Shown here one piece after another: positions 7,455-36,800 of a DNA stretch of 64,000 nt; positions within the stretch are counted from its first letter, which is position 1, and each line of letters begins with the position of its first letter. The notes under the pieces were generated by a model. The model worked only from the letters and a program-made list of their open reading frames with translations, ran no database searches and was not told where the DNA came from. The DNA lies in assembly GCF_002105155.1 (NCBI RefSeq), contig NW_019028995.1, positions 372,001 through 436,000 of the forward strand. The letters are read 5' to 3'. This stretch comes from Lobosporangium transversale. Taxonomy: Eukaryota. The translations under genes and the position numbers were made by a program.

Positions 7455-9204
7455 TATGGACTAGTGGTTTTGGCGGCAATCCACTTGAGGTTGATTTCTC
7501 TTCTTTTCTACTTTTTTCCTTACTACCTGCTCCGTTTGCTATGAGAGCCATAATCCCTGCTAGGGACTCGTTAGTAGGAGGCATGCCTGGAAAAGCAGCT
7601 GACTTACCTTTGTTTTTGGGCACGTTCCTGTGGAACTCTCCACTCAGTCCTGCTGCCTTCAGGTGCTCGGCTGCGAAGTCCATTCCAAGATGTTGGCTCA
7701 TCATTCCTATTAACATTTGGATTAGTAGACTGTTTTGAGCACGTAGTTGTTGTTGCTCTTCCTGTAGGCGTTCCACTGTATCTACCAGTTGCTGGATTTT
7801 CTTATCGACTGCACCAGTGTTGCTGTTCTTTCCTATGACGTTTGTTTGACCAGAACTTTGGATATTGGTTTTTTCTTCCTGTGCCTTCTGTTGGTTGCTT
7901 TGAGTAACACTTCCACTCTTTCCCGTGGCGGCTTTGGCGTATGAGAGTTGTGGTACAACTTTCAGTGCTCCTCCCTTTTGGTATTCCTTGACAGCTTTGA
8001 TGTGCTGCTTTGTCTCCTGGAGTGCAATGAATACCTCGCATTCCCTCATGATGTGTCCTGGTTTGTGGCATTGTCGGCATCGTTTGTCGTCCTTATCACC
8101 CCAGAAAGTCTCAATGCCCCCGATTTTGACTGGTTTAGTCATAGTTTCCGCCATTGCTTCTGCAGAGGGGAAATACACGAATGCTTCTCGTTGATATTGC
8201 CATTTCTTCCCGTCTTTTGAAAAATAGCGTGGCACTTTGACGAAATTCGCTTGCTTTTCTCCAAGGAGAGGCTCCAAGTCCTTGTCTGTCGTTCCAAAAG
8301 GGAGACCTGAGATTTTTGCGACGTGTGTCAATGTCCACTCGACTCGTTCATTGCCGATTTTGCGGATGCGCGCGAGTTCTTTTCCAATGAAGACGTGCTC
8401 CCGGTTGGCCAATTTGAATTTTGTGACGTCCTCAACATTGTTATAAACTACTGCTGCGGTGATCTTGACTCCCTTGGAGCATGGGCGGGTTGCAATCTTT
8501 TCAATAGTACCGAACTGCAGCATTGCTGACTTGATAAGGAATTCCGGAGTCCTAGGAGCAATACCATAAACCTCCACTGTGCGTTCCAGTTCACGTTCAC
8601 GGGTGTCGGTATTCATTTCAAAAAACAATGGGACTTCGTGTTCATTTCCGTCTTCATCTTTGTGTGTAGCAGTCATTTCCAGGAGCGCTGTCAGGGATGG
8701 TTGATCCTCAACAGCAACACGGAAAGCAGTATATCCATTGACTTTGACCTTGTGTGGTCCTTCTGTGCAATAGATGGCAGCATCCAACAAGACTGTTTCC
8801 AGGTCTTTCTTTTTTTCGGCAACCGTTGTTCCATAAAGGTCCTCGAGGAAGACGCCGGCCGCCTTCAGCCTATCCTTGGTGCGTCTCACTTCCTGCCATT
8901 CTGTGACTCCCACAGTGGCCATTGCGTCATCGTCTTCGTCCATTGCGTCCTGTTCTTGTGTAGCTGCACGCAAGCCATTTGCACCCAGGCTGCGGTTATA
9001 CGAGGGACGGCTCTTAGAGCCCGTTCCCTCGTCAACGCGGCTCCCGCTCGCCTCTATGCCGCTTGCGGGACCGACTTCTTGGTTGTTGGGCTGTCTTTGA
9101 GATCCGATTCCGCTATTTGGAATGCGAGCTCTTTTCGAATGAGGGACATTTCTGTCCAAATTGGGTGGATCATGTTGCTGATTTTTTCCTAATGCAGGTT
9201 CCAT
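7447..9204 (-). CDS. LINE ORF1 (gag-like, RRM-like segments, CCHC zinc knuckle, coiled coil)
   Basis: CRQCHKPGHIMREC knuckle; RRM-like TVEVYGI and AKISGLP; first ATG at 9204 (GTG at 9225); overlaps the ORF2 start by 8 nt. Confidence 0.9.
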   Translation of the reverse strand: MEPALGKNQQHDPPNLDRNVPHSKRARIPNSGIGSQRQPNNQEVGPASGIEASGSRVDEGTGSKSRPSYNRSLGANGLRAATQEQDAMDEDDDAMATVGVTEWQEVRRTKDRLKAAGVFLEDLYGTTVAEKKKDLETVLLDAAIYCTEGPHKVKVNGYTAFRVAVEDQPSLTALLEMTATHKDEDGNEHEVPLFFEMNTDTRERELERTVEVYGIAPRTPEFLIKSAMLQFGTIEKIATRPCSKGVKITAAVVYNNVEDVTKFKLANREHVFIGKELARIRKIGNERVEWTLTHVAKISGLPFGTTDKDLEPLLGEKQANFVKVPRYFSKDGKKWQYQREAFVYFPSAEAMAETMTKPVKIGGIETFWGDKDDKRCRQCHKPGHIMRECEVFIALQETKQHIKAVKEYQKGGALKVVPQLSYAKAATGKSGSVTQSNQQKAQEEKTNIQSSGQTNVIGKNSNTGAVDKKIQQLVDTVERLQEEQQQLRAQNSLLIQMLIGMMSQHLGMDFAAEHLKAAGLSGEFHRNVPKNKGKSAAFPGMPPTNESLAGIMALIANGAGSKEKSRKEEKSTSSGLPPKPLVHNE

Positions 9205-14416: not shown

Positions 14417-16208
14417 TTGTCAATGATTGTAGACTGCAAAATGAAAGGAAAAAATGTTCGCTGTAGTATATATTTCACCTGAAGAATTGACTGTACTAGA
14501 GTACAGCCTTTTGTCCTTGCGATCAAATTGCTGTTGAATGATGCGGAGTTGTGGTAGTGGCCGCATTGTCGAGGTCATTTCTGAGACAAAACAATCGAAC
14601 CGAGCACAAATAAGTAGAAAGTAATATAGTGAGCAATGGAATGGAGCAAATGGAGAGTTGTCCCTCGTCCTGATGCTGGCTCCTTCGGACTAGAACTGGA
14701 GCGTTGACAGACAATAATAATAAATTGAATAATGAAATTCTTATATTAATAGAGAAGACTGATTATCGAATTTTGACCTGATTAACTAAATAAGAGCCAT
14801 GGAAGGAAGTAATTACCATCATGAAATCAATCTGCCGAAAAACAAAAAAAGAGCGTGCGCAACTCAATGTGTCAGTCACGCTGGGCGCATTTCTGGAGGA
14901 TAGCTTTCTTCGCTTGCAATTAAGGGATATTCTCCATGTGGAGTAAAGGTTAGAGAGCCTGTTGTCAATTATCCAATGATATTCGACAACGACAGATTCT
15001 GTCCTTTTTAAAGTATTTGTATACATGAATACATATTTGTTCACAATAAATATACAAATATATATATCTATGTAAAATATAGGTGTTAGAACCCTGTTTT
15101 GCGTATTGGAAATCCATTTACGAGCAAATCAATATGTGCGACATGTATACTTGTTGTTTGCAGCTGGCGGAAAAAACACCACGCGGAAGATGGGGGTACA
15201 GAGGAAGATTCGAATGGCTCTCATTTGTCATTCTTTACGTATATATATAATAATATTAAAAGTGGATAGTAGCCAGCAGGGACCTATGCACAAATGCGTC
15301 CATTACTTTTCAACACAACCACTTCTGGGCAACTATGCTTTGAAATGTGGCTTTTTTGGAATTTCAGACCCAGGCTGGAGAGTCTTGCCAAGTAGGTAAT
15401 GTGAATAATATAGAATATGCTATATGCATCGATGCTCCTCTCTCTTTACTTCTCTTCTCCATACTCCATTCCATCACAAGAAGAAAGTTCCAATAAGCTT
15501 TTTATACCACGCGTTTTTGTCCCTGAACATGTTCTCCTGTAATCCAGCGATCCAAAACTATGCTGAATACATGCATTTGTGTACATGTTATATTTTCGAG
15601 TTAAACAGTTTTATTTTTATAAAATTTCTTACAAAGACAAAAAATAAAATAGTAGATTATAAGTCCATGAGGCTGCTCCAGTAGCCAATCACTTGGCTCA
15701 TCGAAAGAAGTGGAGACTGTTTGTCCTCTTTCCCGTCAAGGTCAAGAAGATGGAGGACAGTTCTGGTCACTCGACCTCTCCTTTGGCTGGCCTGAGTTAG
15801 TACTAAAAAACTCTTTTCCCCAGCCTTCACGCCTCTTTTTTAAATATTTTCTTATGAGGCACATTTTCTTTCTCTTCATCCATCACATCATCCATCATCT
15901 CCTTCCTTTCTTCTTTCTTTCCTTCAGATCAGTTCATTTATTTAAATACTCATTATTTTCCTTCGGTCTCTGTCTAATCCATTTCTTTTGTGCCATCTCC
16001 ACATCACTTTCCCTTCTCTTCCGTACACAAACTTTCCCCTTTCTCCACAACAGACAAACACGTTTTTACACAAAACATTCATAATATAGTCCCACACATT
16101 CAAATACACCAAAATTTTCCCTCTTTCTCTCTCACGCACCCTTTTCTCTATTCCTTTTCTCTCTTGACACCTGAATCAGTTCTCCGCATCCAGCCATAAC
16201 GTGCAACC

Positions 16209-17592
16209 ATGAACATGTTTAATACCGATTCAGGGTTCAGACCGCCATCCCCTTTGAACTTTGCTCCGCCCAGTCATGGCCTCTTTGGCGAGTCTCTTCC
16301 TTATGATGGTAAGTAGCTTATGCTAATGCTCCATAAATGGGTACATTTTCGTGATGTAAACTGTACTAACTTACTTTTTCCCTTCATGCCCACTTCTAGA
16401 TTTTAAACTGTCAAATCAGGATTTTCTCAACCTGCCCGCTTCTCCATCTACATTGACAAGCGACCCATCCATGTCGCTCTTCAACCCTTCTGAACAGCGC
16501 TACTTTTCAGAGTTCCTCGATACCTTGGTCGTCGACCAGGACTTCACTTTTGACCCGAGCTCAATACCTAATCTTCCCAATCTGCCTCTCTTCACCTCCG
16601 AAACCATGCCCAACGGGTTCAATCTTGAAAACAGCAGCAACAGCAGCTCCTCCTTTCTCACCGGAGGCTCTATCTCTTCCTCTTCATCGTCATCATCATC
16701 TCTTGGCTCAACCCAGAGTATGATGAATGCCAGCACTATGGATTTCGAGTTGGTCTCGCCTTCATCCCAATCTAGTTTTAGTGGTTCGCATTCTTTTCCT
16801 TCTCATTTTAGCTATAATGGTGCTGTCGATGGCGTTGAATCCCCAGCTTCACCCGCGTCTCCTTCCTCTTCATCTGCCTATACCAACCCTAGTAAGCGAA
16901 AGCCAACCAAGAGCGCAGAGGCAAGACGGACAGCCTCTATCAACCAAGAATCCAGCAAAATTTCGACACCAATCCAGCAACTTTCAAAACTCTCACTTAA
17001 TAGCAACAGCAATCCTAGTATAATCAATACCAACAATCCAACCAATGGATCTTCCAATCCGAAGAAGAATAAACGGGATGAGGACGAACATCCCGCATCA
17101 TCTACCTCGCCCACCTTGGTCTCTTCACCTTCACGAGCACGACGAGAGTTGGTGGAAAACAGGCGAGAGAGAAACACATCAGTCTCGGATGGATCAGTCT
17201 CAGATACTGTTACGACAATCACAGCTCCGGCTACGGCAAAGCGTAAGCCTTATAAGGAGTTGTTGACAGAGGAGGAGAAACGTGCCAACCATATTGCCTC
17301 CGAGCAGAAGCGTCGAAATACAATTCGTAATGGATTCAAAGATATGACCGACATCATTCCAGATCTCAAGGATGTCAACAGCTCCAAATCAACGATTTTA
17401 TTCAAGGCTGTCGATTTCATCAAGCATTTGGAGCGCCAGAATCGTATGCTGCAAGAGAAGGCCAGCAGACTTGAGATGAGACTTGTGAATCAAAGAAATG
17501 AGACTAATGGTGGAAGTGTCATTGGCTCTGGACTGGATGATCAGCGGTTGCAGGACATCCCTCACATTTATCCGGTCCCATGTAGCCGGTAA
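16209..17592 (+). CDS. bHLH-zipper transcription factor (Ino4/MLX-like), 2 exons
   Basis: Exon 16209-16308, GT-AG intron 16309-16399, in-frame exon 2; KRANHIASEQKRRNTIR...SKSTILFKAVDFIKHL. Confidence 0.88.
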
Positions 17593-17788
17593 AGCTTACA
17601 CGTAGCAAACCAGTAACAGTGAACTTTTCTCTCTCACTCCTCCTTCACCTTTACTTTTTTTTTTAGTGGCTCTATTTTCAGATAGATCACTTGTAGCATT
17701 ATCGCCATGTTTCATTGTAATATAGCCCATATTTGTCAATCAATATCTATTTGATTTCTTTTTCAATCCAATATCCTTTCTTTTTTTT

Positions 17789-17825
<37 letters not shown>

Positions 17826-17944
17826 GAATAAATACCATGGTTTATTGCTATTGTTGTCATTTCTTTTTAGTATAGTACACCGTTTTATATTTACGCTACT
17901 CTATTACGTATTTTTTTTTTTTTTTTGCTAAAAGGTAGTTCAAA

Positions 17945-20141
17945 TCATATAATGGATGAAGACGCCTCGCTACGAGTAGGGATGAAAATATTCAAGGGCA
18001 CCTTGGAGTCACTGGCGTTGTTACTCTCTCTCAGATCTAGCACCCTTTTCGAGGACATTTGAGACGGCACTTGTTTCATGGCCAATGATTTAACCTGGGG
18101 CTGAGATAACTCCTTGGGGCTGATCTTGGCGACATCGGCATAGGTCTTGTCAAGGTCTATGGGATATTCATCCAATAGCTTATTCACGAAGATGTCAATG
18201 TTTCCCAGCACCTCTTCATCCATCTCCGGAAAGTTTTCCAGGTGGTTATCATCTCTGTACAGCGACAGATACGAACTTGTGCCATATCCTTCCATCGAGA
18301 CTAGAGATAGGTCTCCACCAAAATATCGAGCGATCAATCGTGATAGAGGCAGACCATGCCCAGATCGACTCAGAGGAAGGTTCAAGTAGCCTTTGGTCTC
18401 ATCGGCCAATCCGCTCGCGAGTGCGTTAGAATTTGGATCTGTAAGCAACATACCTACTCCCTGTTCATTCCCAAGTCGTTCATTTTCAGCCTTTGGTGTG
18501 ACTGAAGTGGCAAAGTGCATATAGCTCCAGATCTTGTCTAATTGTGACAAGGCTATCCCGCCGCCTTGATCTGTGATCTTGATTGTCACATCCTCACTAC
18601 CGTCAACTAGTGCCAGTGTGATGGGCGGTAGTTTTGAGCTAGTACCAAGACTTGATAGCTTAGACATTCCAAGCGAAATTGGGTTCCCATCCTTGCTCAA
18701 ATGTGTCTCACAAGTTGCTCTCATGGCATTCTTGAGAAGCTCAAAGATGGTTCGATGGAGAAAATCATCCACATAAGTCATGGTGATGTCTGGGTTAAAC
18801 GTCTGGATCAAGACGGATGGCGCCGGTTGTCCATAGTGTACGGAACAAACACGTTGAGCATCCTTGATAGCACGCTGTGAGGTCGAGAGCAGATTCACAC
18901 GCTGCGCTAAGTTTAACTCGTGATCGCGGAGCGCAAGTTGCTCACCTTCGTAAATGAAAAGGAGCCAGTTAATTTACAGTCATGATGTCACATAGGAACT
19001 TGGAATTTTGAATCAGACCCTACAAAAAATAAACAATAAACATATCCTTACCAATTAAAAGTTGAGTACTAAGGTTGATGGAATAAAATCTATCGAAATA
19101 GGCCTGGATATCCCTGTCCATTTGTGGATCAATGAGCAACCTTTTATTATCAGTAGTTGATTGCAGACTAGCTTTAGTCGAGGTAGCGTCATCTCGATAA
19201 TCTGTGAACTGAGCTTGGAGAGACTTCGTAAACTCTTTGAAACCCTGACTGAGAGCCAACATCTTGATTTTGTGTCGATGGCCTAGGTCTCGGAGCAACA
19301 TTGTAAACTCTTTCTCTAGCTGAGGGCTTGATGGCTTCGGCATCTGGACCAAAAGGCTAATAATATCATTTGTGGGTATGTCACCGATGAATTCATATAG
19401 TTCATCAGCAAGTAAAACAGGAGGTGTAAAAGTATGTTAGAGCGGTTTTAGTAAAGCTTAAAGGACTGAACGTGGAAAACTGGATCAGTTACTCCTAATA
19501 GTAATAAAAGATGGTCATTCGGCTGGTATTCCTTGTCCTACTGCTCTGTTGTATGAGATCATCTTTTTTTTCTTCCACTCTGCAGTATCTTTCCCTTCCC
19601 GATCCAATTCTTTTTCTAAAAATTAAGGCAAACAAGTGCATAAAATACATTGAAGGAACAAACCTAATGTCTTCCAAGTAGGACCTGGCGATGTTCTGAA
19701 AGGTCGGCATCTCTGACATATTAGTCCCCAGCAGTTTTGAGTTCAACATGCTGAGGGCATGCGACAGACGGATAGGGAGTTCTCGATGTAAGAACACTGC
19801 AGGGATGACCAACGCGTCTTGATTATTTGACGCGAGGACATGTCTAATGAACAGAACAAGTCATATGAGTATTTGCTTCAAGACAAAAAGTCAGAACAGT
19901 GAGATTCTTTCTTTGTCTTTTTACTTCCTCTCATTACCGTCCAAGTGTGTATATTTGTTTGAGCTTATATCAAACAAAAAAAAAAAAAAAAAAAAAAAAA
20001 GATTGAACAAAATAGATTCGTTAGAAACTAAATGCGTAGGGATATTGTTATACTCAAGGAAGAAGCCCTTACAGACAATCGAGTCGCTTTGAAGCGACAC
20101 AGTTTAATGATAAGAGCAGCCTGAGTTTTATTCATAGGCAT
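17945..20141 (-). CDS. Mitochondrial alpha-ketoacid dehydrogenase kinase (PDK/BCKDK family), multi-exon
   Basis: FLHRELPIRLSH, FELLKNAMRAT (N box), IKITDQGGGI (G1), GLPLSRLIARYFGGDLSLVSMEGYGT; first exon boundaries approximate. Confidence 0.85.
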
Positions 20142-20697
20142 TAAGTTTTTTTTTTTTTTTTTGGATTGTTATAGAAGAGAGAAAGAGAGAGTGTGTGTAA
20201 ATGTAAGTCTGTGTTGTGTCCGTCTAAAGTAGGGCTAAGGAGTGATAAACGCGAATACCATTCGGTGGCGAAGGGTTGGAGGACGAATAAGAGAGAGAGG
20301 AAAAGATAATCATGAACATTGCACGAGAGACAAAGGATTGAGCCAAGCTAGGTTGGAAGAAAAAGAAAAAGGCGATAAAGAGAAGATGCGAAATTTCGGC
20401 CGAAGTAACGAAGCGCCAAATGTAAGCAAGAGAAGATTGAAGTGACTGAGACAGCGGAAGCGAAGGCTACGGAAGAAAGAAAGAAAAATGAATAAAATGT
20501 TTCCAGCCGAATAGAAGGAACCGGAACCAGTGAGACATCTGTGGGGTATCAGGCAACTCTTTACTCTTTTTCAACCAACAGTTAATCAGATTAAGCGTTT
20601 ATAATGATTATACGCGAGTGCGCAGATTTATATATTACAAAAGCGAAGGGGGAAAGTATATACTATTAAAGGAATAATATGGAGACGGTGATTGATT

Positions 20698-21516
20698 TTA
20701 GAAGAGGAATGCAGAAACACCGACTGCAGTTGCCAGGACCAACGTCTTGACAAAAGAGTTAGCGACTATACCGGCATCGCTGTTGAAGCCTTTGCCATGG
20801 TCAGAGTGATCACTGGTGGAAGTGGGTTTAGAAGGTACTGTAGTGGTTCCAGTGCCGTTGCCAGGGTTGGGTGCAACATACTTGAGGTCGCAGAAAGGTG
20901 CAAACTTGGTATTGGAGCACATAGTATTGTAAGAAGGGCACTGCTTCATGTCAGGCATATCGAGGCACAATCCCTTCCATGCCTTAACTTCGTCACAATT
21001 GCTGTAGCCGGATGCTTCAGGCGTGGGGCAAATCTTACAATCGGTCATCATGGGCATCTCCTGACAGATAGAATAAACAGTTCCAGTCACGGTCTTACCA
21101 GAAGGAAGACCGGGGAATGCAGGCTGACCTTTACATGCAGGAATGAGAGAGTTGGCGGCACAAAATATAGAGTAGCTCTTTGAGCAAACAGTACCAGTGA
21201 GAACTGCATCCTCCGTTGGGATGCAGAGCGAGGCCAAGATAGTCATTGGTGCACAATAGGTGGTACTCAGCTTAGAATCAGCTGTGCAGGCAGCGTTGAG
21301 TGAGCATCCAGGCAAGAACGAGTTGATAGCACAGATCTCCTTGATAGCATCCGTAATGGTTGCATTTGGTACAACAAATGTTGAACATACGGCATCAGTG
21401 GGAGTAGCCAAGCAGCCAGAAGGAGCAGTGGCTGGGGGATCGTGAGGATGACCATCATGAGCAGTAGCGGAGGCGACGAAGACTGAGGCAACGGCGAAGA
21501 GCAAAGAGGAGCGCAT
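20698..21516 (-). CDS. Secreted, probably GPI-anchored Cys/Met-rich protein, paralog of the neighbouring Ctr ectodomain
   Basis: Signal peptide ending SATA, mature N-terminus HDGHPH, LPGCSL, ICQEMPMMTDC and LCLDMPDMKQC motifs, Ser/Thr linker, hydrophobic C-terminus. Confidence 0.85.
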   Translation of the reverse strand: MRSSLLFAVASVFVASATAHDGHPHDPPATAPSGCLATPTDAVCSTFVVPNATITDAIKEICAINSFLPGCSLNAACTADSKLSTTYCAPMTILASLCIPTEDAVLTGTVCSKSYSIFCAANSLIPACKGQPAFPGLPSGKTVTGTVYSICQEMPMMTDCKICPTPEASGYSNCDEVKAWKGLCLDMPDMKQCPSYNTMCSNTKFAPFCDLKYVAPNPGNGTGTTTVPSKPTSTSDHSDHGKGFNSDAGIVANSFVKTLVLATAVGVSAFLF

Positions 21517-21645
21517 CTTTCACTTGTTTCGTTTGTTTTGGGTTATGGTTGGTGAGTTGTTGTTAGATCTTGTGCAAAAGAAAGGAAGAGATGAATGAAA
21601 ATAGAGAAAAATGCTGAAGTGGTCATGGAATGGAGGAGGACGACA

Positions 21646-22280
21646 CTTTTATACCGAAATCCTTGGTTTAATATTTGCTCTCAAGATGACAGACATAGAT
21701 GAATGTCAAGGGGTGTTTAATATCTTGATGGATTTGACAGGTGGTGTGGGCTTCTGTTAAAAGTCGCAAAAATGCTCTCATTCTTGGTGTGATAATTTGC
21801 TTTTATTGAATTGGAGTGAGTATATACAACATATGAAAAAAAAAAATGACAGTTGAATGTTTGACATACCGAAGAGGTACTCGTTTTCCTGGGTCCTCAA
21901 TTTTCCTGATGTTCCATTTTGACAAACATCAGCCTGTTTATTTTTGTGGACGCACTCTTTTTGACAGGTGAAACCGGCATGCATCCATCTCTCAGTTGTT
22001 CAACTGTCATTATTTTGACATTTTCTTCTTCTTCCTTTATTCCCCCCTTTCTTTTTTCCTTCACTGCGTTATTCCTGTCTCTTTATTTACATATATTATA
22101 TAATACTCTTTCTATTCCCCCTAGATTTCCCTGTCTTTTTCTATTTTCTTCTTTAATAGTTGTAGTTATTCCTGTTGTTCTCATTGCTTATTCATCTGTA
22201 CATCTCTTTCGTGGCGTTTTTGACATTCAAGATCATTCCACTTTTTTTTTTTTTTTTTTTTTTTTTTTGGCGGTATAAAA
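21646..22280. promoter_or_regulatory. Bidirectional promoter with clustered TTTGACA motifs
   Basis: TATAAAA on the minus strand near 21647-21653 and on the plus strand near 22274; TTTGACA at 21733, 21860, 21918, 21960, 22014 and 22219; TGTCAA at 21704; TTTGCTC at 21674. Confidence 0.65.
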
Positions 22281-22357
22281 CCAAGTCCTTTTCGAATTCT
22301 CTTTGAACCCAAATTCTTGTTCATTTAATTCACTCCCTTTAAAAAGAATAGTAAGGA

Positions 22358-23575
22358 ATGAAAGCCTTATCATTCCTTAGAACCAGCCCCCACTTGGCGT
22401 TGTTGTTTCTTCTTGGAACACTCTCTATTACCCATCATGTCCAGGCACAGAGTGTCGATTGTCTAATTACACCTTCCGATCCTTCTTGCGCTTCCTTTGA
22501 GCTGCCGGAGGCGACAATCAAAGCTGATCTAGATGGCCTCTGCACCCAAATGCCATACATGCCTGGTTGCTCGCTCTATAAATCATGTCAGGCTGCTTCC
22601 AAGGCTGATCAGTGGTGCACACCTTTCTCAGTATTGGCAGACATCTGTGCCTTGGATATGCCTAACATGCGCGACTGTAAGAATTATGTTGCTCTCTGTG
22701 GCGCTGCCGTGAATCAGACCTTGGCCGCTCGGCCTGCTATCTGCAAGAAGGCCCCCATGATCTCGGCGTTCCCGACCACCAAGAATGCCTCAGCTCTCGT
22801 CATTGACATTTGCACAGAGATGGATATGGCCGGTTGTGAGCGATGCCCCAAACCCAAGCCCGATACCTATGCGGCTGATTGTGATACCCTCGGTACTTAT
22901 GCGATCCTGTGCAAGGCCATGCCAGACATGCACCAGTGTGCTGCTTGGAAATCCATGTGTTCCTCTTCTTCTGATACTGCCTCAGTTCTCAACTTCCAGG
23001 ATTCCGAATACTGCGCTGCTGGTGTCGGTAGTCCTGATATGAACCCGCCTGCCATGCGTATGTACTTCCATTTAGGCTTCTCGGATTATGTCTTATTTGA
23101 GAAGTGGGTTCCTCGAAATCAGAGCCAGTACATTGGTACTTGGTTTGCACTCTTCTTCCTCACACTTTTTTTCCAGACTGTTCAGACCTACCATAACTGC
23201 CTCGAGGCCCAATGGGCGGAGGAGTATATAGCCGAAAGTGAAGAAGTTTCAAAGTCGGATTCTTCCATTCCTTTGGCTTCTAGCAAAGGCTCGCGTTCCA
23301 ATCCAATCCTCCTCCAATGGATGCATATCTGGCGCCAACCTTGGACGCTGAAGGAGGCAAAGCAAAACATGTTCCGTGCTGTGCTGACTTTTATCGAAAC
23401 TACACTTGGATATGCACTCATGCTAGTTACTATGACCTTTAATGTGCCTTTGTTCTTTGCCGTCATTCTCAGCCTAACCGTTGGCTCAGTAGTCTTTTCA
23501 AGGCAACGTTCAGTAGTTATGATCAAATCCAACGCCAATGCTGCCAGTGGAACTGGTTGTGCTGGCTGCGGTTAA
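22358..23575 (+). CDS. Ctr-family copper transporter with signal peptide and large Cys/Met-rich extracellular domain
   Basis: MRMYFH...VLFEKW before TM1, YALMLVTMTFN (MxxxM) in TM2, a third TM segment, C-terminal CxxC; ectodomain with C..MPxMxxC repeats. Confidence 0.93.
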   Translation: MKALSFLRTSPHLALLFLLGTLSITHHVQAQSVDCLITPSDPSCASFELPEATIKADLDGLCTQMPYMPGCSLYKSCQAASKADQWCTPFSVLADICALDMPNMRDCKNYVALCGAAVNQTLAARPAICKKAPMISAFPTTKNASALVIDICTEMDMAGCERCPKPKPDTYAADCDTLGTYAILCKAMPDMHQCAAWKSMCSSSSDTASVLNFQDSEYCAAGVGSPDMNPPAMRMYFHLGFSDYVLFEKWVPRNQSQYIGTWFALFFLTLFFQTVQTYHNCLEAQWAEEYIAESEEVSKSDSSIPLASSKGSRSNPILLQWMHIWRQPWTLKEAKQNMFRAVLTFIETTLGYALMLVTMTFNVPLFFAVILSLTVGSVVFSRQRSVVMIKSNANAASGTGCAGCG

Positions 23576-25560
23576 AAGCACATCTTACTTTCTTCGTAAG
23601 CTCCACTATAATCCGAATGTAAATAAATGTCATATTCAATATCAAAATAAAAATAAAGTGCATGTCTTACCTTTCTATATTATGACCTCTGAGTCGGATA
23701 AAACCACCTATTACGCTTTGATTCATACTGTCGGACAAATCAAATACATGTATGCATGCGTCTTATTTTCCAATATGAAGAACGTGAGGGTAGTCCAGAC
23801 TGCCGTACATTTACCACTATCCGTTACCTTGGCGTAGTTCTGGATTGCATGCTAATAGGACATTTACAATAATATACAGTGCATATCAAAATTAGCAAAA
23901 ATTTTACCTTCTTTATTTCCTCCGCTTTTACTGCATGTTCAGAGCGAACTGGATTGGAATAAAGGACTAAACGAACAAAGCTTCATTAAAAAATAAATAA
24001 CGTTCGTAACCGGCCACCACAGTCCCCTGACATGAATTCCATTGAACACATGTGTTGAACTCAAGAGAAGGCTTGGAAAGTATTTTTTCTTTTTTTTTAC
24101 AGCCTTTGACAACAATGACAAAACTGTAAAATATGAATGTATTCGCCAAAATTAACGTAGATGACTCCTTTCTTCTAGCACTAGATACTAAAATGGATCA
24201 ATCATTGATGAAATAAGACACGTGTATAATGAATATATTTGTGTATATCCATCGTATCCATAGTGAACTGACTTATTTTATTTCTTTACAAGGCCATCTC
24301 GCATTTTGTCTTTACTGTTTGAGAAGATATCACGAAGATATCACACGGCCATTGATTAAAACACCCTCTAGATTTTATTAGGGATATATGCAATTGAATA
24401 GTGTCGTTCATCCTATCACGTATGTATATATATATCATGGCATGTTTCCTTCTATCTGTTGTAAGGATTTCCCTGTTTAGCTCTGATAATTCTATTAACT
24501 TTTTAGATAGATGGCCCATTAAACCAAGGGAGATCTGATTAAGCCAGAGAGCAATCTATAAAGAATGTTAAAGTACAATGTCAAGGAAGTCAAATACCTA
24601 TCCCGAGTCAGTAAGCATGTTCGTGTACATGCACATAAAAATATTATACATGTACTTGTACTTGTATGGCGGAAGAATCTTCCAGACAACACAATAGGTT
24701 AATTTTTGACTTACTTTTGACAAACTTTAAAAGAATATTCATGTACCTGTCAAAACGCTGACTCGGGACCGACCGCCCATCAGTACCTTAACCCATACAT
24801 GTACAGGCTTTTTGTGATGTTTTTCTTTTTTCTACTTTCCTTTTGATGAAATGACATCCTTAATGGTAAACCCCGCATCGATTAAAATTTCTTTTTACTG
24901 TATGGTCAGCTGTGTGAAGGAGATCTATTGGTGTTATTGTTCAAGTTATTGATCTGTCTCTTATGGACGTATCGATATGAATTCACTAACGACAGTTATA
25001 AGAGTTGCTCGAACAACAAAATAAAGTATAGGGCCAATTTTGGCAGACAGGGGTAGAGGAAGGAGGAGGACTTTCAGGTACTACCATGGCCGTGTCAATA
25101 GTTTATATTTGTCAAGTTGATAAAGAGAGTTGACAGACTGAGTAAATGTATTATTTAAGGTTTGACAAAGAGACAAATCCTTGTCTCCTTTGAGGTACAC
25201 AATTTTGACGTTGACACAAACAAACAACGTGCCTTCTATTTGTTTTCCGTTGCCCTATACATTCAAAAACAAATACATGTAGCACTTTAGAAACTCTTGT
25301 TGTAGAGCTTGAGCCAATCCAGAAGCAACAAGGCCACTAATATATTTTTCCCAAGGTTATCAGCACTAGATAAGGAATGAAGATGCAAGAATTAGTTACT
25401 ATCGCAAAAAGCATCATCGTCAATAGATTCAGTATAAAATGGTCCCTCTCCCGCTTTCTCTTTCTTTACTGTCGTGCCACATTTTGCTACCACTTCCTCA
25501 GTCATATATCCGTCTTCTATATCTCTTTACTGTAATACATCACATCAGTTTTTTTCAACC

Positions 25561-26205
25561 ATGAAGTTCGTTGCTGTCGCCTCTGCTGCCATCTCAACTA
25601 TCCTCTTCGCCACCCCGTTGGCCGAAGCCCATGTTACTGCCAACCCCTCAGCTGCTGTCTCAGGGTCCTACTTTCAGACTAGTTTTCGTGTCCCTCATGG
25701 TTGTGATGGTAATGCTACAAACCTGGTCATTGTCGAAATCCCCAAGGGTGTTTCCTCAGTTAAGCCCCGCCCTCTCTATCCTTGGAATACTACCATTTCC
25801 ATGGTACCTCTCGATACCCCCATCACCACACCTACGGGCACCATCAATACCACCGTTGGTTCTATTACCTGGTCCAATGGTCTAATCCAAGATAACATGT
25901 ACGAAGATTTCGGATTGCAGTTCAAGTTACCAACTCAGGAAGGCCCTCTCTACTGGAAGGTCTACCAGCATTGCGTCAATAACGAATGGAACAACTGGAC
26001 CAGCGTCCCTGACGCCAACGGAAAGACTGATGGTTTCCCTGCAGCCGTTATTACTCTTTCCAATTCCACAACTACCACTGGCCCTGGAGGTGCTTCCCCT
26101 TCCGCTAGCAGCAAGCCTAGTGCTGCTGTCGCCGCCTTCCAGAGCTTGAACTTCGGCCGCGTCGCTCTTATCAGCTCTGGTGCCTTCTTGGTCGCTCTTA
26201 TTTAA
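25561..26205 (+). CDS. YcnI/DUF1775-family copper-binding protein, secreted with a GPI-like tail
   Basis: Signal peptide ending AEA, mature N-terminus HVT, FRVPHGCDG, IPKGV..VKP...W, ITWSNG, WKVYQHC, NW; Ser/Thr linker and hydrophobic C-terminus; TATAAAA near 25433. Confidence 0.85.
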   Translation: MKFVAVASAAISTILFATPLAEAHVTANPSAAVSGSYFQTSFRVPHGCDGNATNLVIVEIPKGVSSVKPRPLYPWNTTISMVPLDTPITTPTGTINTTVGSITWSNGLIQDNMYEDFGLQFKLPTQEGPLYWKVYQHCVNNEWNNWTSVPDANGKTDGFPAAVITLSNSTTTTGPGGASPSASSKPSAAVAAFQSLNFGRVALISSGAFLVALI

Positions 26206-26559
26206 GAAAAATAAAATAAAAAAAGCCTTACCTATATACCATGCGAAGATAAACAGGCAGCGAGTGGAGAAGAAAGGAAGAGGACGAGAAGGAGAACGCA
26301 TTATACATCCTATCATAGACTATATGGCGCTGCTTCATATACAACGCTTCTATTATCCATAATGCTCACACCTTGAACGTAATACAGTTAATAATAACAA
26401 TGGTAATAATACAAACCTGGTTGCCATTCAAAGTTTGGTACTCATCTGAATGCGATAATATTTATTTTCTCCTTGCGTACCACAATTTATTTATCACATA
26501 TGACACAGAACTGCAGGTCAAGACGGTGAATAGTATAGAAGCCAGAGGAAAAAAATCAA

Positions 26560-26647
26560 AATGAATGCTGCAATAATGATCTTGTATTTACGGAGCAGAC
26601 GAATTGAACGCTGTTCCAATCCGATTTCGTCTCGAAGCCGATTCAGC

Positions 26648-26692
<45 letters not shown>

Positions 26693-29600
26693 GCAGTTAG
26701 TGTCCCTGCATAGAGCAGATAAAGCGAAGCTTCGGAAAAAAAAGAGAGACCTACATTAAAGCGTGCAGCGCCCATGATCTTCGTGCAGAGCACAATTCTC
26801 TCGTTAACATCCTTGAGCTTCGCGTCTACAGTTTCGGCTAACGTCTTGCCAGTGGAAGGTGATGGCCTAAGGGCTAACTGAATCTCTTGATTATCGATCG
26901 CTCGTAGCATAGCGGTCATCAATTTCTAATACACATATTGTACAGTAAAAATGATTATTCATTCATAGTCACGGCATTCAATTATATAAGACTTGCAAAT
27001 GTACTCACTTTAGCACCATCATCCAATTTATTCAACTTATCGAGACACATATCAATCTGCTGTGATACGTTCTGGATATTTGCATAGCTTGCTTGAAGTT
27101 TGCCTTCTTGTTGTGCCAGACGGAGATCAATCATATCAATCAACAAATCCATATCCCTAGTTTTATCGCGAAATAAAGGAGTAAATAAATTTGTGATAAA
27201 AATAAAGTATTGATAAGGGACACTCTACATGTTCCGTCGCATACTCAGAGATGTTTTCGGACTGGTGTTTCTTGGAATCCATAAATGCATCAAAGCCTAT
27301 CCCTCCATGTGGCTTGGATGAATCAATAGTATGGTCGCTCTCCACGTCTAAAGCGTCAAAAAATAGCAGCAATGTAAAAAGGGAATAAGATTAGCAACGC
27401 AACTACATAAATATTTTTCAGCCGCCATTGATTCCTTGAATGCTATTAACCATACCTCCGTGGTCCATGACACTTATGGCAATCCAGTTTATAAATTCGC
27501 ACTTCAGCTTAACGGAAGGGGACTCGAGGCACATAATGTTAGTCCTATCACCATTGAGCATAGAAAATATCGCTGTGGCATCTATGAAATTACAAAAAAA
27601 AGAAAGAAATTATATGTGGTGTCAACAGCTAAGGAATTTTCATGGACACCCATCGCTTGTCGTGTTTTATATTATTAAAAAATACTTACGATTATCATTC
27701 ATAATGGACACATCAACTGCGGTATCGAATTTTTCGTATTCGAGCCCACGGGCAATTTCACCAAGATAGAGCTCCAGGCCAAATGTTGCTTGTCGAAATT
27801 CCTCGCGATATTTTCGCTCCATCTCTTTCCATTTGGCAATTTCGGCTGTCTGTAGCTGTAGCTGTTCCAGTCGCTGCTGCTCCTTAACGCTTGTCCACGA
27901 CCATTTCCTGCTGAGGAGCTGTGCAGAGTACGGTATTGTCTTGGATAAATTATTGTTGTTGTTATTACTTATCTGTCGGACTGAAAATGGTGGCTCATGG
28001 TGTTCTGTAGGATCGCTTCTAGACCGATCAGGTGTTCCTGCAATGCCTCTGAGAAACAAATTACTGCTGCTTATGGGGCTGTACCGCTGATCCAAATACC
28101 CAAGTGCCCGTCCAGAAGATATCCCAACAGGGGAAGCTATGGGACTTTCACTTAGGGTTCCTGAGCTTGTCATGCGCGTCTGATCCCAAGCTAATGCAGA
28201 TTTGACGATCTTTTCTCCTAGATTTTGCTTGTCTCGTTCACTGCCGCTCAGTCGAACAGACTCTTTTGTTGGCTTAGAGAGGGCAGTGCTTAAAATTCCG
28301 GTTTCTAGTTGTTCAGACGTATCATCTTGACCTCCATCATTCGGCCAGAAAGAGGCAATCCGGCTCTGTTCTTGTTCTTCTCTTAATGTTTTTGCTTTTT
28401 TCTCTAATGCACGGTAGGTCACATATGCCTCCCGAAAATATTGTGCACATGCAGGCTCCAATTTCAAGGATAGCTTTTTATATTCGACATTTTTGCCCAG
28501 AACTCGAAATATATAGTATCCTTGGAACTTTGAGTTTTCATAAGATCTGAAAAGAAAAGATTTTGTCCCTATGATGTCCAGGCCATTCGCTCTCGACTGC
28601 TGAGGCATTGATTGAGGCTCGTAATTAGTGAGCGTACCAATAGGTGTACTGTAGATAGAAAATGGTATGACATGTGGTGCCAAAGGGCCTTGTTGTATTT
28701 GAGTATATGGATGATGTTGCTGTTGGTACGTTTGCGATTGGAAACGAGTTTTGGACGCGGATAGCGTTGCAAAGGCATTGACAAAGCTAGTTGGTAATGG
28801 TTCTAATTCCACCAAGAGCAAGTTTGGATCTGGGTTCGCCTGACGTGCTTCCTTTAGTGCAGGCGAAATGAGTGCTTCCAGGCACCAGGTCACCGGTATC
28901 TGATGGCGAACTTCTTCTCCGACAGACCGACTACGATGGCGGTGGTGGAAGCTATGGAGAAACCCATGATGGTGACGGTGACGGCTCGACCGGGATGTTG
29001 ATGAGTCTTCGTCATCTGTAGCAGCTGTCGCGAAAGGAGTAAACATTCCGGTGGCAACAGAGTGAGTTTTTTTTGTGAAGCGCCTCTTACGCCGCCCTGA
29101 ACCCTTCAGCTTGAAGCCTTTGGAAGTCGAGGGTTGATCATCTCCCGAAAGGAAGTCTCCAAATAAGGGGAATGTACTACGAGTTTGTATTGGTTTCATG
29201 ACACCGTTTTGAGTCCCATGCAGATCTCGAGCAGATGGTGCGGTTGAGAGGGGCGCAGTTGAATGCTGATTTGAGAAGCCCACGCTCTTTAATAATAAAC
29301 GTACTGCTTTATTATTTTCGTGCCCTTGCTCTGATCCAGACAAGCTACCGCCTTTACCTTGCGTTACTGGGCCTTGCCCATTGTTGAAGTGAGTTATAAT
29401 GCTGCTGGGGCCGTTTCGTGGTGGGAGTTGTGGTGGGAGACCAGAGTCGGTATACTTTAGTTTCGAGCGTGTAGACAATGAGGCTTTTTTGCTTTCTGGT
29501 GCTGATGGAAATCTATGTGTGATGCCTCCAACATTAGATATGAGATCTGATTCAGGTTCTAGAGGGAAATTCATCAATCATGCTTTCCTTAGCTTATGTT

Positions 29601-31404: not shown

Positions 31405-33850
31405 ATGGAACCTGCATTAGGAAAAAATCAGCAACATGATCCACCCAATTTGGACAGAAATGTCCCTCATTCGAAAAGAGCTCGCATTCCAAATAGCGGA
31501 ATCGGATTGGCTGAGTAGTATACTCGTCAGGGCACCCCCCTGTCTAGCCCAGGGGCCGGGTTCGAGTCCTGGTTAAGGCACATAAAGTGAAGCAAACATG
31601 TGCCAGGTCAGGGATTTGCTTGAGTTTTTATACTTTCTCTCCGAGACAGCCTAGTGTTCTCCGCTAAGGCTAAGATCGTGGGTGCACTACCCTAAGTCGC
31701 CTGGCTGGCCACATGTCTTAGGTATATATTCCACCCCCCAGCCGAACCAGCGGTACATCTGGCAGCACATCCCCCCATCCACCCACTTGACTAGGACAGC
31801 GATGATCACAAAGTTTGACGGAGTCCAAAATAGAAATTTCAGACCAATTCCGCAAGATTTGGGTCCACATGCCAGTGGATTTGATCTAATAGAAAAAATT
31901 AAAAAAGTCGTCCTTAGCTAGAGTCGGCACGCCAGCCTCCGCAGCTTTTCACGGGCGCAACAGGCCACATCGGAAGGATGGACTTCGAGTACCGATCACG
32001 GTGTACATTGGTAGAGAAAAACATGGATACGAATTGGCTCTTCACAGCCATCCCGTGCGAACTTTGAGAGTTTCGCTTGTTTCATAGTTGAGGGCGATAT
32101 CATTACTTTAGAGCGAGATTATGAAATAAAATTCCTCACCTCTGTGGGTTCTTGTTAACAGGAAAAAAAAAAAAATCCAAATAGCGGAATCGGATCTCAA
32201 AGACAGCCCAACAACCAAGAAGTCGGTCCCGCAAGCGGCATAGAGGCGAGCGGGAGCCGCGTTGACGAGGGAACGGGCTCTAAGAGCCGTCCCTCGTATA
32301 ACCGCAGCCTGGGTGCAAATGGCTTGCGTGCAGCTACACAAGAACAGGACGCAATGGACGAAGACGATGACGCAATGGCCACTGTGGGAGTCACAGAATG
32401 GCAGGAAGTGAGACGCACCAAGGATAGGCTGAAGGCGGCCGGCGTCTTCCTCGAGGACCTTTATGGAACAACGGTTGCCGAAAAAAAGAAAGACCTGGAA
32501 ACAGTCTTGTTGGATGCTGCCATCTATTGCACAGAAGGACCACACAAGGTCAAAGTCAATGGATATACTGCTTTCCGTGTTGCTGTTGAGGATCAACCAT
32601 CCCTGACAGCGCTCCTGGAAATGACTGCTACACACAAAGATGAAGACGGAAATGAACACGAAGTCCCATTGTTTTTTGAAATGAATACCGACACCCGTGA
32701 ACGTGAACTGGAACGCACAGTGGAGGTTTATGGTATTGCTCCTAGGACTCCGGAATTCCTTATCAAGTCAGCAATGCTGCAGTTCGGTACTATTGAAAAG
32801 ATTGCAACCCGCCCATGCTCCAAGGGAGTCAAGATCACCGCAGCAGTAGTTTATAACAATGTTGAGGACGTCACAAAATTCAAATTGGCCAACCGGGAGC
32901 ACGTCTTCATTGGAAAAGAACTCGCGCGCATCCGCAAAATCGGCAATGAACGAGTCGAGTGGACATTGACACACGTCGCAAAAATCTCAGGTCTCCCTTT
33001 TGGAACGACAGACAAGGACTTGGAGCCTCTCCTTGGAGAAAAGCAAGCGAATTTCGTCAAAGTGCCACGCTATTTTTCAAAAGACGGGAAGAAATGGCAA
33101 TATCAACGAGAAGCATTCGTGTATTTCCCCTCTGCAGAAGCAATGGCGGAAACTATGACTAAACCAGTCAAAATCGGGGGCATTGAGACTTTCTGGGGTG
33201 ATAAGGACGACAAACGATGCCGACAATGCCACAAACCAGGACACATCATGAGGGAATGCGAGGTATTCATTGCACTCCAGGAGACAAAGCAGCACATCAA
33301 AGCTGTCAAGGAATACCAAAAGGGAGGAGCACTGAAAGTTGTACCACAACTCTCATACGCCAAAGCCGCCACGGGAAAGAGTGGAAGTGTTACTCAAAGC
33401 AACCAACAGAAGGCACAGGAAGAAAAAACCAATATCCAAAGTTCTGGTCAAACAAACGTCATAGGAAAGAACAGCAACACTGGTGCAGTCGATAAGAAAA
33501 TCCAGCAACTGGTAGATACAGTGGAACGCCTACAGGAAGAGCAACAACAACTACGTGCTCAAAACAGTCTACTAATCCAAATGTTAATAGGAATGATGAG
33601 CCAACATCTTGGAATGGACTTCGCAGCCGAGCACCTGAAGGCAGCAGGACTGAGTGGAGAGTTCCACAGGAACGTGCCCAAAAACAAAGGTAAGTCAGCT
33701 GCTTTTCCAGGCATGCCTCCTACTAACGAGTCCCTAGCAGGGATTATGGCTCTCATAGCAAACGGAGCAGGTAGTAAGGAAAAAAGTAGAAAAGAAGAGA
33801 AATCAACCTCAAGTGGATTGCCGCCAAAACCACTAGTCCATAATGAGTAA
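31405..33850 (+). pseudogene. LINE ORF1 of copy 2, split by a SINE insertion
   Basis: MEPALGKNQ start at 31405; the frame resumes after 32195 and matches copy 1 ORF1. Confidence 0.9.
31508..32175 (+). mobile_element. tRNA-headed SINE / non-autonomous LINE partner (about 670 bp)
   Basis: A and B boxes at the 5' end, LINE-like 3' UTR, poly(A), perfect 20-bp TSD TCCAAATAGCGGAATCGGAT at 31488-31507 and 32176-32195. Confidence 0.93.
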
Positions 33851-36800
33851 TGCAAGCACTCAAAATAGACAGGACAGTACTAGATCTAATAGCAATGCTA
33901 TTAAATTTGGATCATTTAACATACGGGGTGCGTTAGAAGCTGGGAAAATAGAAGCGTTATGTGAATATGGTGATATGAAAGATTTAGATATGATAGCACT
34001 CCAAGAAACCAACATGCATGTTGGAGGGAGTAAAATGGCAAGAAATTTGAAACAAACTAAATATAAAATGTGGTGGGTGAGTGGTAAAGAAGGTGCAACA
34101 CAGGGAACAGGGGTTGGGCTTTTGATCGCTCAGCATTGGTTCCAGTACGCTGCGAGAACTTCATCTTGTGGGAGCAGAGGCCAAGCGAGAGATTTCAACT
34201 TTCCTGGGGGATTTAAAATCAGAGTAATTAACTGCTACCTACCAAGCGGAAGGGAAGATGAAGCAGAAGTAATTACTAAATGGATACAAAAAGAATATAA
34301 CGACGCGAGAGAAGAAGGGAGGGGTATAATCATTCTTGGGGATTTCAATGCTACTAGGAACCCCCGGCTCGATCGACGACGAGAGAACGCAACGAGTATA
34401 AGACCAGAATCGGCACTACTTCAATGGATGGAGACGCAGCCACTTCATGATGTTTTCCGCGCTCAACACCCTCTTCGTGAAGACTATACCTGCCAGAATA
34501 CGAGCCGTATAGACATGATCTTTGTATCTAGTGTATTCACGGATAGGCTTCTCAGGGTCAAACACAAATCATTGGATGGTATTGTGGCGTCAGACCACAA
34601 AATGGTCACTCTAGAAATGACACTGCACCGCCTTATTCAACAACCACTTCATCACATCATTTACAAAAAACCCAAGGGCTACAAATTCTTACTTCGCGAT
34701 GCCAGCAACGACGATTGGGAGAATTTTGAGAACGGTGTGAATATAAGAATTGGAGACGGCAGTGAATCTTCTACAATGGGCCTACGGAGAGCCCAGAACG
34801 ACGATGAAAAGGATCTCTTGACGCCAGAAGACCTTCAAAGAATCGACATTGACCTTGCATGGAAATGGTATTCAAAGCTGCTCATAGAAAGCGCCAAAGA
34901 AAACTTGCCAGGAAGAGTGGTTGGTCGGTCTGGAGTGAAGCCAGAACAAGAATTGTGTCTCCGCCACCTCATACGTGATCTCGCTAAAATTAAAAAATTG
35001 GCAAATCAAACCCGCAGAGGATTATCAACAGTACAAAGAGACGCAAGATGGACAACACTGGTAGAGCAGCAGAAAAAATTTAATAAGAATGCTGAGTGGT
35101 TGAGGCTGCAAGGACAAGGGGAGATCGAAGGCCTCACTACTATACCGGACACGAAGGATAGCGACGATGTATGGAAAGATTGGGTAAGAGGAGTAAAGCA
35201 CAGATGGACAGAGTCAATATCATTTTTACAGGCGACAAGGAAGCTGGAAAAGACAAGGACGATGAATGGCCTGATAGAGAAACGCTGTGGAGAGTTGAAG
35301 TCGGCAACAGGGAAAATGATAGACAAAGTGCTGGGACGTGGCGGAGGTAAAGTGACAATAGACCGGATTCAGGACGACGAAGGCGGTGTCACAGTGAATA
35401 TTCTAGAGCCACAGCAAGTTAAAGAGAAGGTACGGGCATGGTTCGACAAGTGGCACGGACGTAGGCCGTCAAAACCGCTAGAGCCGGGTTCGAGATGGCA
35501 GAAGCAATATAGCCCTCAGAGGTGGATCAAGAGTGAATGGTACGACGGTCTGATGGATCCACCAAGCAGAAATGAGTTTTCAGCTGTGGTCCTGGATGCA
35601 CCCAAAAACAAGGCAGCTGGTGTGTCAGGCATTACGAACGAAATGATCCAACACCAAGGACCGCAGGGGCTCTTTATCCTCTTCCAAATCATAAGTGCCA
35701 CTATCGTGCAAGAAGACGTCCCCAAGGATTGGAAGACGGGGCTCCTCTATTGCATACCAAAAGCTCCAGAATGGTCAGGAAACATGGCAGAGGTAAGGCC
35801 GATAGCTTTGTTGGAGCACGCACGGAAAATAATGTTTGCAGTAATAACAAATAGGTTAAGCGCGATCATGGCCAGGCACGATATTCTACGAGGACCAAAC
35901 TTCTCTGTTCTTAAAGGTACTACCACTAAGGATCCAATCCATATCCTGCAAGCGGCAATGGAAGACGCAAGAGAGTTCAAGAAAGAACAGTGGATTGTGT
36001 TCCAAGACATGAAACGGTGTTTCGACTCTGTCAACTGCGCCCCCGATGGGATGCTTTCTCGCGGACTAAGACGGCTCCAGGTCCCTGAACAGTTCATACG
36101 CCTATGTGAAAACATCGCCATTTCCAAAGTGAACAGGGTGATTACTGAATACGGACCAACTGACGAGTATCATCCAGAGTGCGGTTTGGATCAAGGTGGA
36201 GTGGAATGTCCGCTTTTATGGAGAATAGCATATGATGCACTCCTGTGTGAAATTATAGACAGTAGCACTGGATATAGTCTAGAGGGACCAAGAGGGACAC
36301 CATCAGTTGCTGGCCTTGCTTTCGTGGATGATACTACATGGATATCGGACTCCAAAGCACATATGCAGGAGATACTTGACATTGCAACGACATTCTTCAT
36401 TCTTAACGGGGTGGAAGTGAACGCCAAGAAAACGCAGGTCATCTGTATCAACAGCAAGCAGGATAGGAGGAGCACGCTGAAATTTGGGACACCTACAGAA
36501 GAGATCCGACCAGTGGAAAAGAATGAATCGGTACGGATTCTTGGTGTTTGGGTCACAGCAACAGGAAATCCAACAGCAACACAGCAAATAGTGGAGCAGG
36601 AAATAGAAACGACCTGTAACATTCTCCGGTCCAAAGCCCTGACAGATCGGCAGACAACGTATATTGTCAATAATGTGCTCATCCCAAAGGTGCTGTATAG
36701 GATTTCGGCCCAAATGTTGCCACCAACGTTCCTACAGAAGATGACTGGTAAGTATATGTCACTGTGTAAGCGGAAAGCACGTATGCCATCAACTACGCCA

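Follow-up and report, generated by a model that had tools for sequence, protein, structure and literature searches.

The locus described here belongs to the soil fungus Lobosporangium transversale and lies in a 64,000-bp stretch of contig NW_019028995.1 (forward-strand positions 372,001 to 436,000, renumbered from 1 and called the window below). Three neighbouring genes in it carry hallmarks of copper handling and are predicted to form a copper-uptake trio, and the spacers between them are densely set with a short word, TTTGACA(G), which is the subject of this work. Two spacers are considered: the divergent spacer (21517-22357, 841 bp), which separates two divergent start codons, and the second spacer (23576-25560, 1985 bp), which precedes the third gene. 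The genes, their TATA-like boxes (inferred from the sequence) and the sites of the divergent spacer are:

20698-21516, minus strand: the leftward gene, an open reading frame (ORF) for a Cys/Met-rich protein that is secreted, rich in His at both ends and hydrophobic at its tail
21647-21654, minus strand: TATA-like box GTATAAAA of the leftward gene
21674-21680, plus strand: TTTGCTC, a canonical core of the Mac1 type near the TATA box; the window copy lacks the final purine
21704-21709, minus strand: TTGACA site, about 50 bp upstream of the leftward TATA-like box
21733, 21860, 21918, 21960, 22014 and 22219 (together 21733-22225), plus strand: six TTTGACA sites of the divergent promoter
21847 (plus strand) and 22005 (minus strand): ATGACAG variants in the divergent promoter
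21860-21888, plus strand: block TTTGACA-N9-GGTACTC-N-TTTTC, which aligns in register with 3852-3880 of the orthologous locus L001 (see below)
22273-22280, plus strand: TATA-like box GTATAAAA of the Ctr gene
22358-23575, plus strand: Ctr copper transporter with a Cys-rich ectodomain (PF04145, E-value 2.5e-29; match to the Ctr1 structure 6m97, E-value 1e-8)
25432-25439, plus strand: TATA-like box GTATAAAA of the YcnI-like gene
25561-26205, plus strand: DUF1775/YcnI-like secreted protein (PF07987, E-value 7.5e-35; structure matches 7me6 and 7mek)

An earlier sequence-only reading of the window had proposed the word as a copper-responsive element. All 16 motif sites that it named, and the TTTGCTC at 21674 that it likened to the Mac1 copper-response element (CuRE), were found where it had placed them; the divergent promoter, given as 840 bp, measures 841 bp. 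Its rough estimate was well under one 7-mer match per 840 bp, and dinucleotide shuffles give 0.39 expected copies of TTTGACA. Against this expectation the divergent spacer contains 6 copies of TTTGACA, as well as 7 of TTGACA (0.91 expected), and the second spacer contains 4 and 9 copies, respectively (0.63 and 1.94 expected); none of the four counts was reached in 1000 shuffles, although with slightly different bounds the TTTGACA count of the second spacer was reached in 11 of 3000. No 7-mer of the divergent spacer ranks above TTTGACA, and a best word of equal strength arose in none of 200 shuffles, a figure that allows for the choice of the word. The rest of the window (61 kb) holds 8 copies, with at most one in any other interval of 841 bp. 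The 6-mer TTGACA is less distinctive, as it occurs 7 times in another interval of 1985 bp near 16221, compared with 9 in the second spacer. Among the 7-mers of the second spacer, TTTGACA is outranked by ACATGTA. Eight TTGACA/TGTCAA sites, mostly without the extra T, are also seen at 16164-18193 around a bHLH gene and the 3' part of a kinase gene.

The motif recurs at orthologous loci. One metagenome scan yielded three such loci from 36 candidate stretches; no further ones were found in a genome collection (0 of 20) or in a viral collection (0 of 22). The first locus, L001 (Ctr identity 79%), comprises a kinase gene, the leftward gene, the full divergent spacer, the Ctr gene and 1.6 kb beyond it, and the second, L002 (Ctr identity 72%), has 299 bp upstream of the Ctr gene and 1.4 kb beyond; the third, a GC-rich locus with 34% identity and 369 bp upstream, is too divergent and enters none of the counts. 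TTTGACA occurs 4 times in the divergent spacer of L001 (0.10 expected), 5 times in its downstream region (0.35 expected) and 7 times in the downstream region of L002 (0.43 expected), counts reached in none of 1000 shuffles each. When these three held-out regions are pooled, TTTGACA is the top 7-mer (16 copies, 0.84 expected) and TTTGACAG the top 8-mer (10 copies, 0.22 expected). Since fourfold-degenerate sites of the Ctr genes are almost saturated, with 49 of 148 and 49 of 134 identical, and 24-bp blocks across the spacers align no better than shuffled sequence, this retention is not explained by passive inheritance. Global alignments of the spacers are mostly uninformative, and the block at 21860-21888, taken on its own (17 of 24 positions matching), does not rise above shuffles either. 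In the control region to the left of the leftward gene TTTGACA is absent from both species; this control is imperfect, since a short conserved segment within it (22 of 24 matching) is probably an exon of a kinase gene. ACATGTA, with 8 copies in 23576-25560 and 7 in the rest of the window, has none in either orthologue and is species-specific, which tells us that the replication test discriminates. Because TTTGACA replicates in the held-out loci while ACATGTA fails to, we regard the element as real and likely selected. The sequence-only reading had named orthologous promoters as a check, and there the motif is kept: it is enriched in orthologous non-coding DNA of two distant Mortierellaceae despite neutral saturation. 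By this footprint TTTGACA(G) is a real, conserved cis-element, selection on it is likely, and we are highly confident that it is functional.

A second conserved word, TGACTCGGG, accompanies TTTGACA in the second spacer, whose features are:

24105-24111, plus strand: distal TTTGACAAC site, a 9-mer shared by all three species at 338-530 bp beyond the Ctr stop codon
24579-24767, both strands: conserved module with TGTCAA at 24579, TGACTCGGG on the minus strand (24602-24610), CTTCCA (24679), TTTGACA on the plus (24716) and the minus strand (24748), and TGACTCGGG on the plus strand (24759-24767)
25093-25216: proximal cluster with TTGACA at 25093 (minus strand), 25110 (minus strand), 25130, 25162 and 25211, and GGTAC at 25194

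The downstream module is ordered: a minus-strand copy of TGACTCGGG comes first, followed by CTTCCA, a plus-strand copy of TGACTCGGG and then the proximal TTGACA run ending in GGTAC. Its order is the same in L001; L002 has both copies of TGACTCGGG and CTTCCA, and at least two plus-strand TTGACA sites followed by GGTAC are found in L001 and L002 as well. The inverted pair of TGACTCGGG, 120-210 bp apart, is present in all three species (L001 6233 and 6353; L002 2305 and 2518), and TGACTCGG occurs in 2 copies, against 0.02-0.06 expected, in each of them.

Could the sites be without regulatory meaning? They might stem from chance or composition, from a local duplication, or from -35 boxes of bacterial origin that came in with a transferred gene. 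The word was picked post hoc, and TTGACA is frequent in the window (69 sites) and is also the -35 hexamer of sigma-70 promoters. But TTTGACA emerges independently as the top word in two distant species, no repeat unit was found to carry the sites, and the sites fill the Ctr promoter too; moreover, across six regions a -10-like hexamer with at most one mismatch lies 15-19 bp after TTGACA at only a single site. We therefore consider a non-regulatory origin very improbable, and both a bacterial sigma-70 promoter and a tandem duplication as the source of the sites were rejected. A search of 19000-27000 for Rfam RNA families gave no match.

Which protein might read the word is suggested by its flanks. 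In five spacers, 37 of 51 TTGAC words continue with A, compared with 53 of 149 elsewhere in the window, and TTGACA is followed by G in 18 and preceded by T in 26 of 37 cases. This is a TGACA core with a preferred T on its 5' and a preferred G on its 3' side, as in sites of TALE/KN homeodomain proteins, and the A-rich position after TTGAC excludes a W-box and fits a TALE homeodomain site. The top held-out 8-mer is identical to CTGTCAAA, the consensus of the yeast TALE factor Tos8. TGIF1 binds TGACA with minor-groove contacts that lengthen the site (PMC6158717). In Rhizopus microsporus, DNA affinity purification sequencing (DAP-seq) of four homeobox-KN factors gave 8-bp motifs closest to that of Tos8 (-log10P 4.6, 2.7, 5.7 and 4.8; PMC12638772), and yeast cup9 mutants, which are without a homeodomain factor, are copper-sensitive (PMC13224613, citing Knight 1994). 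The earlier statement that the word resembles but differs from the Mac1 CuRE is hence to be amended: it does differ, yet it corresponds to a known TALE site and not to a Mac1 variant (PMC6158717, PMC12638772). Judged by its letters, then, the motif word is a known type of site, and we put at roughly 0.45 the probability that a homotypic cluster of TALE/KN sites, read by a homeodomain protein, co-regulates the copper-uptake trio.

The TGAC core could instead be read by another family, through bZIP half-sites (together with the TGACTCGGG pair), a fungal WRKY protein or an unknown domain. TGACTCGGG likewise contains TGAC, and WRKY genes have been reported for Mortierella verticillata (PMC4350883), but the supplement of PMC12638772 gives WRKY counts of 0, 0 and 1 for three Mortierellaceae, the W-box TTGACY is not enriched (10 copies, 9.8 expected), and no palindromic bZIP site recurs among the shared words. 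With A following TTGAC as often as stated above, the WRKY W-box TTGAC(C/T) was rejected, and a reader from any of these other families appears rather improbable.

A more serious competitor is a copper-fist factor. In Dikarya the Mac1/Cuf1 copper-response element has the consensus TTTGC(T/G)C(A/G), and TTTGACA might itself be such an element, used under copper starvation by a factor of the Mac1/Cuf1 type with a specificity moved from TTT-GCTC to TTT-GACA. Among the conserved words at the copper-uptake trio, itself conserved, TTTGACA is the dominant one, it lies upstream of genes predicted by Pfam and structure matches (Ctr, DUF1775) to serve copper uptake, and it has the T-run and G-core build of copper-fist sites; it does not match the Mac1 consensus. 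Mortierellaceae genomes encode one or two copper-fist factors (M. alpina 2, M. elongata 2, P. epigama 1; PMC12638772 supplement). For Rhizopus the same survey reports a 19-bp motif of the copper-fist protein Copf3 with yeast Cup9 as its best match (-log10P 2.48), but this match is weak (27 peaks; fraction of reads in peaks 6.3 and 1.5), bZIP motifs match Cup9 at 2.3-2.6 as well, and the targets of Copf3 are given as ribosome biogenesis (PMC12638772). Copf1, which by eye carries a Cys-His motif like that of Mac1/Cuf1, failed the DAP-seq filter (PMC12638772). Also against this reading, canonical Mac1 cores persist in all three divergent promoters, one near the TATA box in each (window 21674; L001 3633, a palindrome; L002 108), with one further locus across the three downstream spacers. 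Pooled over the six regions they number 5 (1.39 expected; reached in 7 of 500 shuffles), two of the five being one palindrome and 13 motifs having been tried. We hold a shifted copper-fist specificity to be less probable than a TALE reader, and a serious alternative to it. Words for sigma-70, Ace1, the S. pombe copper-signalling element (CuSE), A. fumigatus Mac1, GATA, Aft and CCAAT were not enriched in the pooled regions.

Several points weigh against a homeodomain-read cluster. The enrichment table of PMC12638772 has no copper term. Where copper-uptake promoters of other fungi carry repeated sites, the reader is a copper-fist factor (PMC5812535), so that a priori a copper-fist reader would be favoured. 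The 299-bp upstream piece of L002, part of its divergent promoter, has no TTTGACA and a single TTGACA. The contigs of L001 and L002 end short of the YcnI gene, and downstream orthology rests on position, locus-tag synteny and module order; two orthologous loci were compared, and the enrichment controls consist of one 64-kb window and one flank. As to the wider claim of the sequence-only reading, that the three genes are co-regulated by a lineage-specific copper-sensing factor, it is supported in part: shared regulation is likely, because the motif is non-random, is kept in two orthologous loci and flanks three clustered genes with copper hallmarks; for a response of the TTTGACA element to copper we see about even odds.

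The genes themselves fit a role in copper uptake. The leftward protein, predicted by inspection to be anchored by glycosylphosphatidylinositol, is paralogous to the ectodomain of Ctr, with 34% identity over Ctr residues 35-225 (E-value 7e-28). It has no Pfam family match, and its predicted fold (mean predicted local distance difference test score 73) found no PDB match at E 0.001 and no match in the Atlas. It can be described as a free-standing copy of the Cys/Met-rich Ctr ectodomain that is conserved across Mortierellaceae; the same ectodomain sits on Ctr proteins of chytrids and Dictyostelium. A public protein labelled Lobosporangium transversale is identical over 78% of the leftward ORF. 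The Ctr motifs MxM, MxxxM and G/SxxxG are retained in 29 of 29 close matches. In the YcnI-like protein, alignment places His24 directly after a signal-like peptide and shows a conserved Trp146 and PHGC in place of the Bacillus Glu. Of the copper site known from Bacillus, the protein has both the N-terminal His and the Trp. Its gene is intronless and has close matches only in Mortierellaceae, the remaining matches being distant and, where named, bacterial; in a tree that left out 4 of 53 matches (fragments or an alternative gene model), a long branch with full support separates the fungal sequences from 15 distant matches, the named ones bacterial. The gene was likely acquired horizontally from bacteria. 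The public gene model P0105 departs from the uninterrupted leftward ORF by an altered C-terminus, and P0056 from the uninterrupted YcnI-like ORF by the loss of His24 and an internal stretch; family alignments favour the uninterrupted forms over both.

The close relatives are Mortierellaceae, in which the arrangement of the genes is largely kept. By locus tags, read by eye and only in genomes with both (or all) tags visible, Ctr and YcnI are at most two tags apart in 13 of 16 genomes, Ctr adjoins the leftward gene in 11 of 12, and all three genes are consecutive in 7 of 8, the order being changed in one Actinomortierella.

The upstream region of the YcnI-like gene is crossed by one further feature:

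23920-25555, plus strand: spliced contig from run X5, which is tentatively classed as RNA

The contig skips a GT..AG intron (24420-24506). It contains 33 ATGs, and its longest ORF encodes 52 amino acids, so that the regulatory region of YcnI may be overlapped by a transcript that is either non-coding or undecoded. In the rows listed, runs X3, X4 and X5 match the window base for base; run X7 shows C>T and G>A changes. Run X5 does not cover 21813-22325, a gap on which no claim is based. Mobile elements are also present in the window. A short remnant at 24005-24080, reading PPQSPDMNSIEH, matches a high-depth repeat in DNA runs and resembles a Tc1/mariner transposase motif. An element of the long interspersed nuclear element (LINE) type, with endonuclease, reverse transcriptase and RNase H, is present in two copies (2430-9204, minus strand; 32354-38867, plus strand), which appear recently duplicated, as their long ORFs are 99.98% identical, and a partial relative lies at 40000-42378.

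How might the locus work? Dense, conserved sites in mixed orientation surround the three TATA-like boxes of a conserved gene trio. The trio proteins would capture copper at the cell surface and then import it, and a TALE/KN factor bound at many sites would co-regulate all three genes, the many copies between and before the TATA boxes giving strong joint control of the divergent pair and the YcnI-like gene. The copper signal could enter at the single canonical core close to the TATA box, where a Mac1/Cuf1 orthologue would bind and the homeodomain protein would act as partner or repressor, or could be sensed through the TGACA-reading homeodomain factor itself. More broadly we propose, tentatively and as something short of an even bet, that copper uptake in Mortierellaceae may be run by a TGACA-reading switch unlike the Mac1 element of yeasts and moulds, either a rewired copper-fist factor or a copper-controlled TALE homeodomain, that this switch would be wired also onto a YcnI gene likely from bacteria, and that the long spliced upstream transcript would form a second control layer. 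A copper-controlled TALE homeodomain, if true, would suggest how the copper phenotype of yeast Cup9 comes about, and the locus makes it testable whether TALE homeodomains take part in copper regulation. As a conserved, dense and easily mutated element, TTTGACA opens the question of copper regulation before Dikarya, and the divergent promoter may be of use as a metal-tunable bidirectional promoter for industrial Mortierella.

The copper-uptake cluster has apparently been undescribed until now: among the matches listed, the literature holds nothing on this element or gene cluster, no study of copper-regulated promoters of Mortierellaceae or Mucorales, and no TALE-site cluster at a copper-uptake locus. 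Known systems offer partial parallels. GGTAC adjoins TTTGACA at conserved positions here, which recalls the GTAC element of algae and plants (CRR1/SPL7); GTAC is mildly enriched (52 against 31.5 expected, both strands counted; 5 of 500 shuffles), GGTAC is not enriched over the window background, and GTAC cores have been noted in CTR promoters of Rhizophagus (PMC6531763). The CRR1/SPL7 system differs in that SBP-box counts are 0 in the last columns of the supplementary table of PMC5415576, where zygomycetes and chytrids are listed. As in the Bacillus ycnKJI operon, in which a surface-anchored DUF1775 protein is encoded beside a copper importer (10.1101/2021.06.11.448128, 10.1101/2025.05.23.655588), a DUF1775 gene stands next to a copper importer gene; unlike ycnKJI, the present locus is eukaryotic, has three separate promoters, Ctr in place of CopCD, and the PHGC subtype without the Glu50 ligand. 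The Mac1/Cuf1 element of Dikarya likewise consists of repeated short T-led sites upstream of Ctr, with GCTC where GACA is found here; the Rhizopus survey obtained no site for its Mac1-like factor Copf1 (PMC12638772). Parallels are also offered by the TALE sites, namely TGACA(G) of TGIF1/Meis and those of yeast Tos8/Cup9 and Rhizopus HOX_KN1-4, which share with our element the TGACA core, the T-rich 5' flank, the 3' G and the use of both orientations, and KN factors with Tos8-like motifs do occur in a sister fungal lineage, Rhizopus (PMC12638772).

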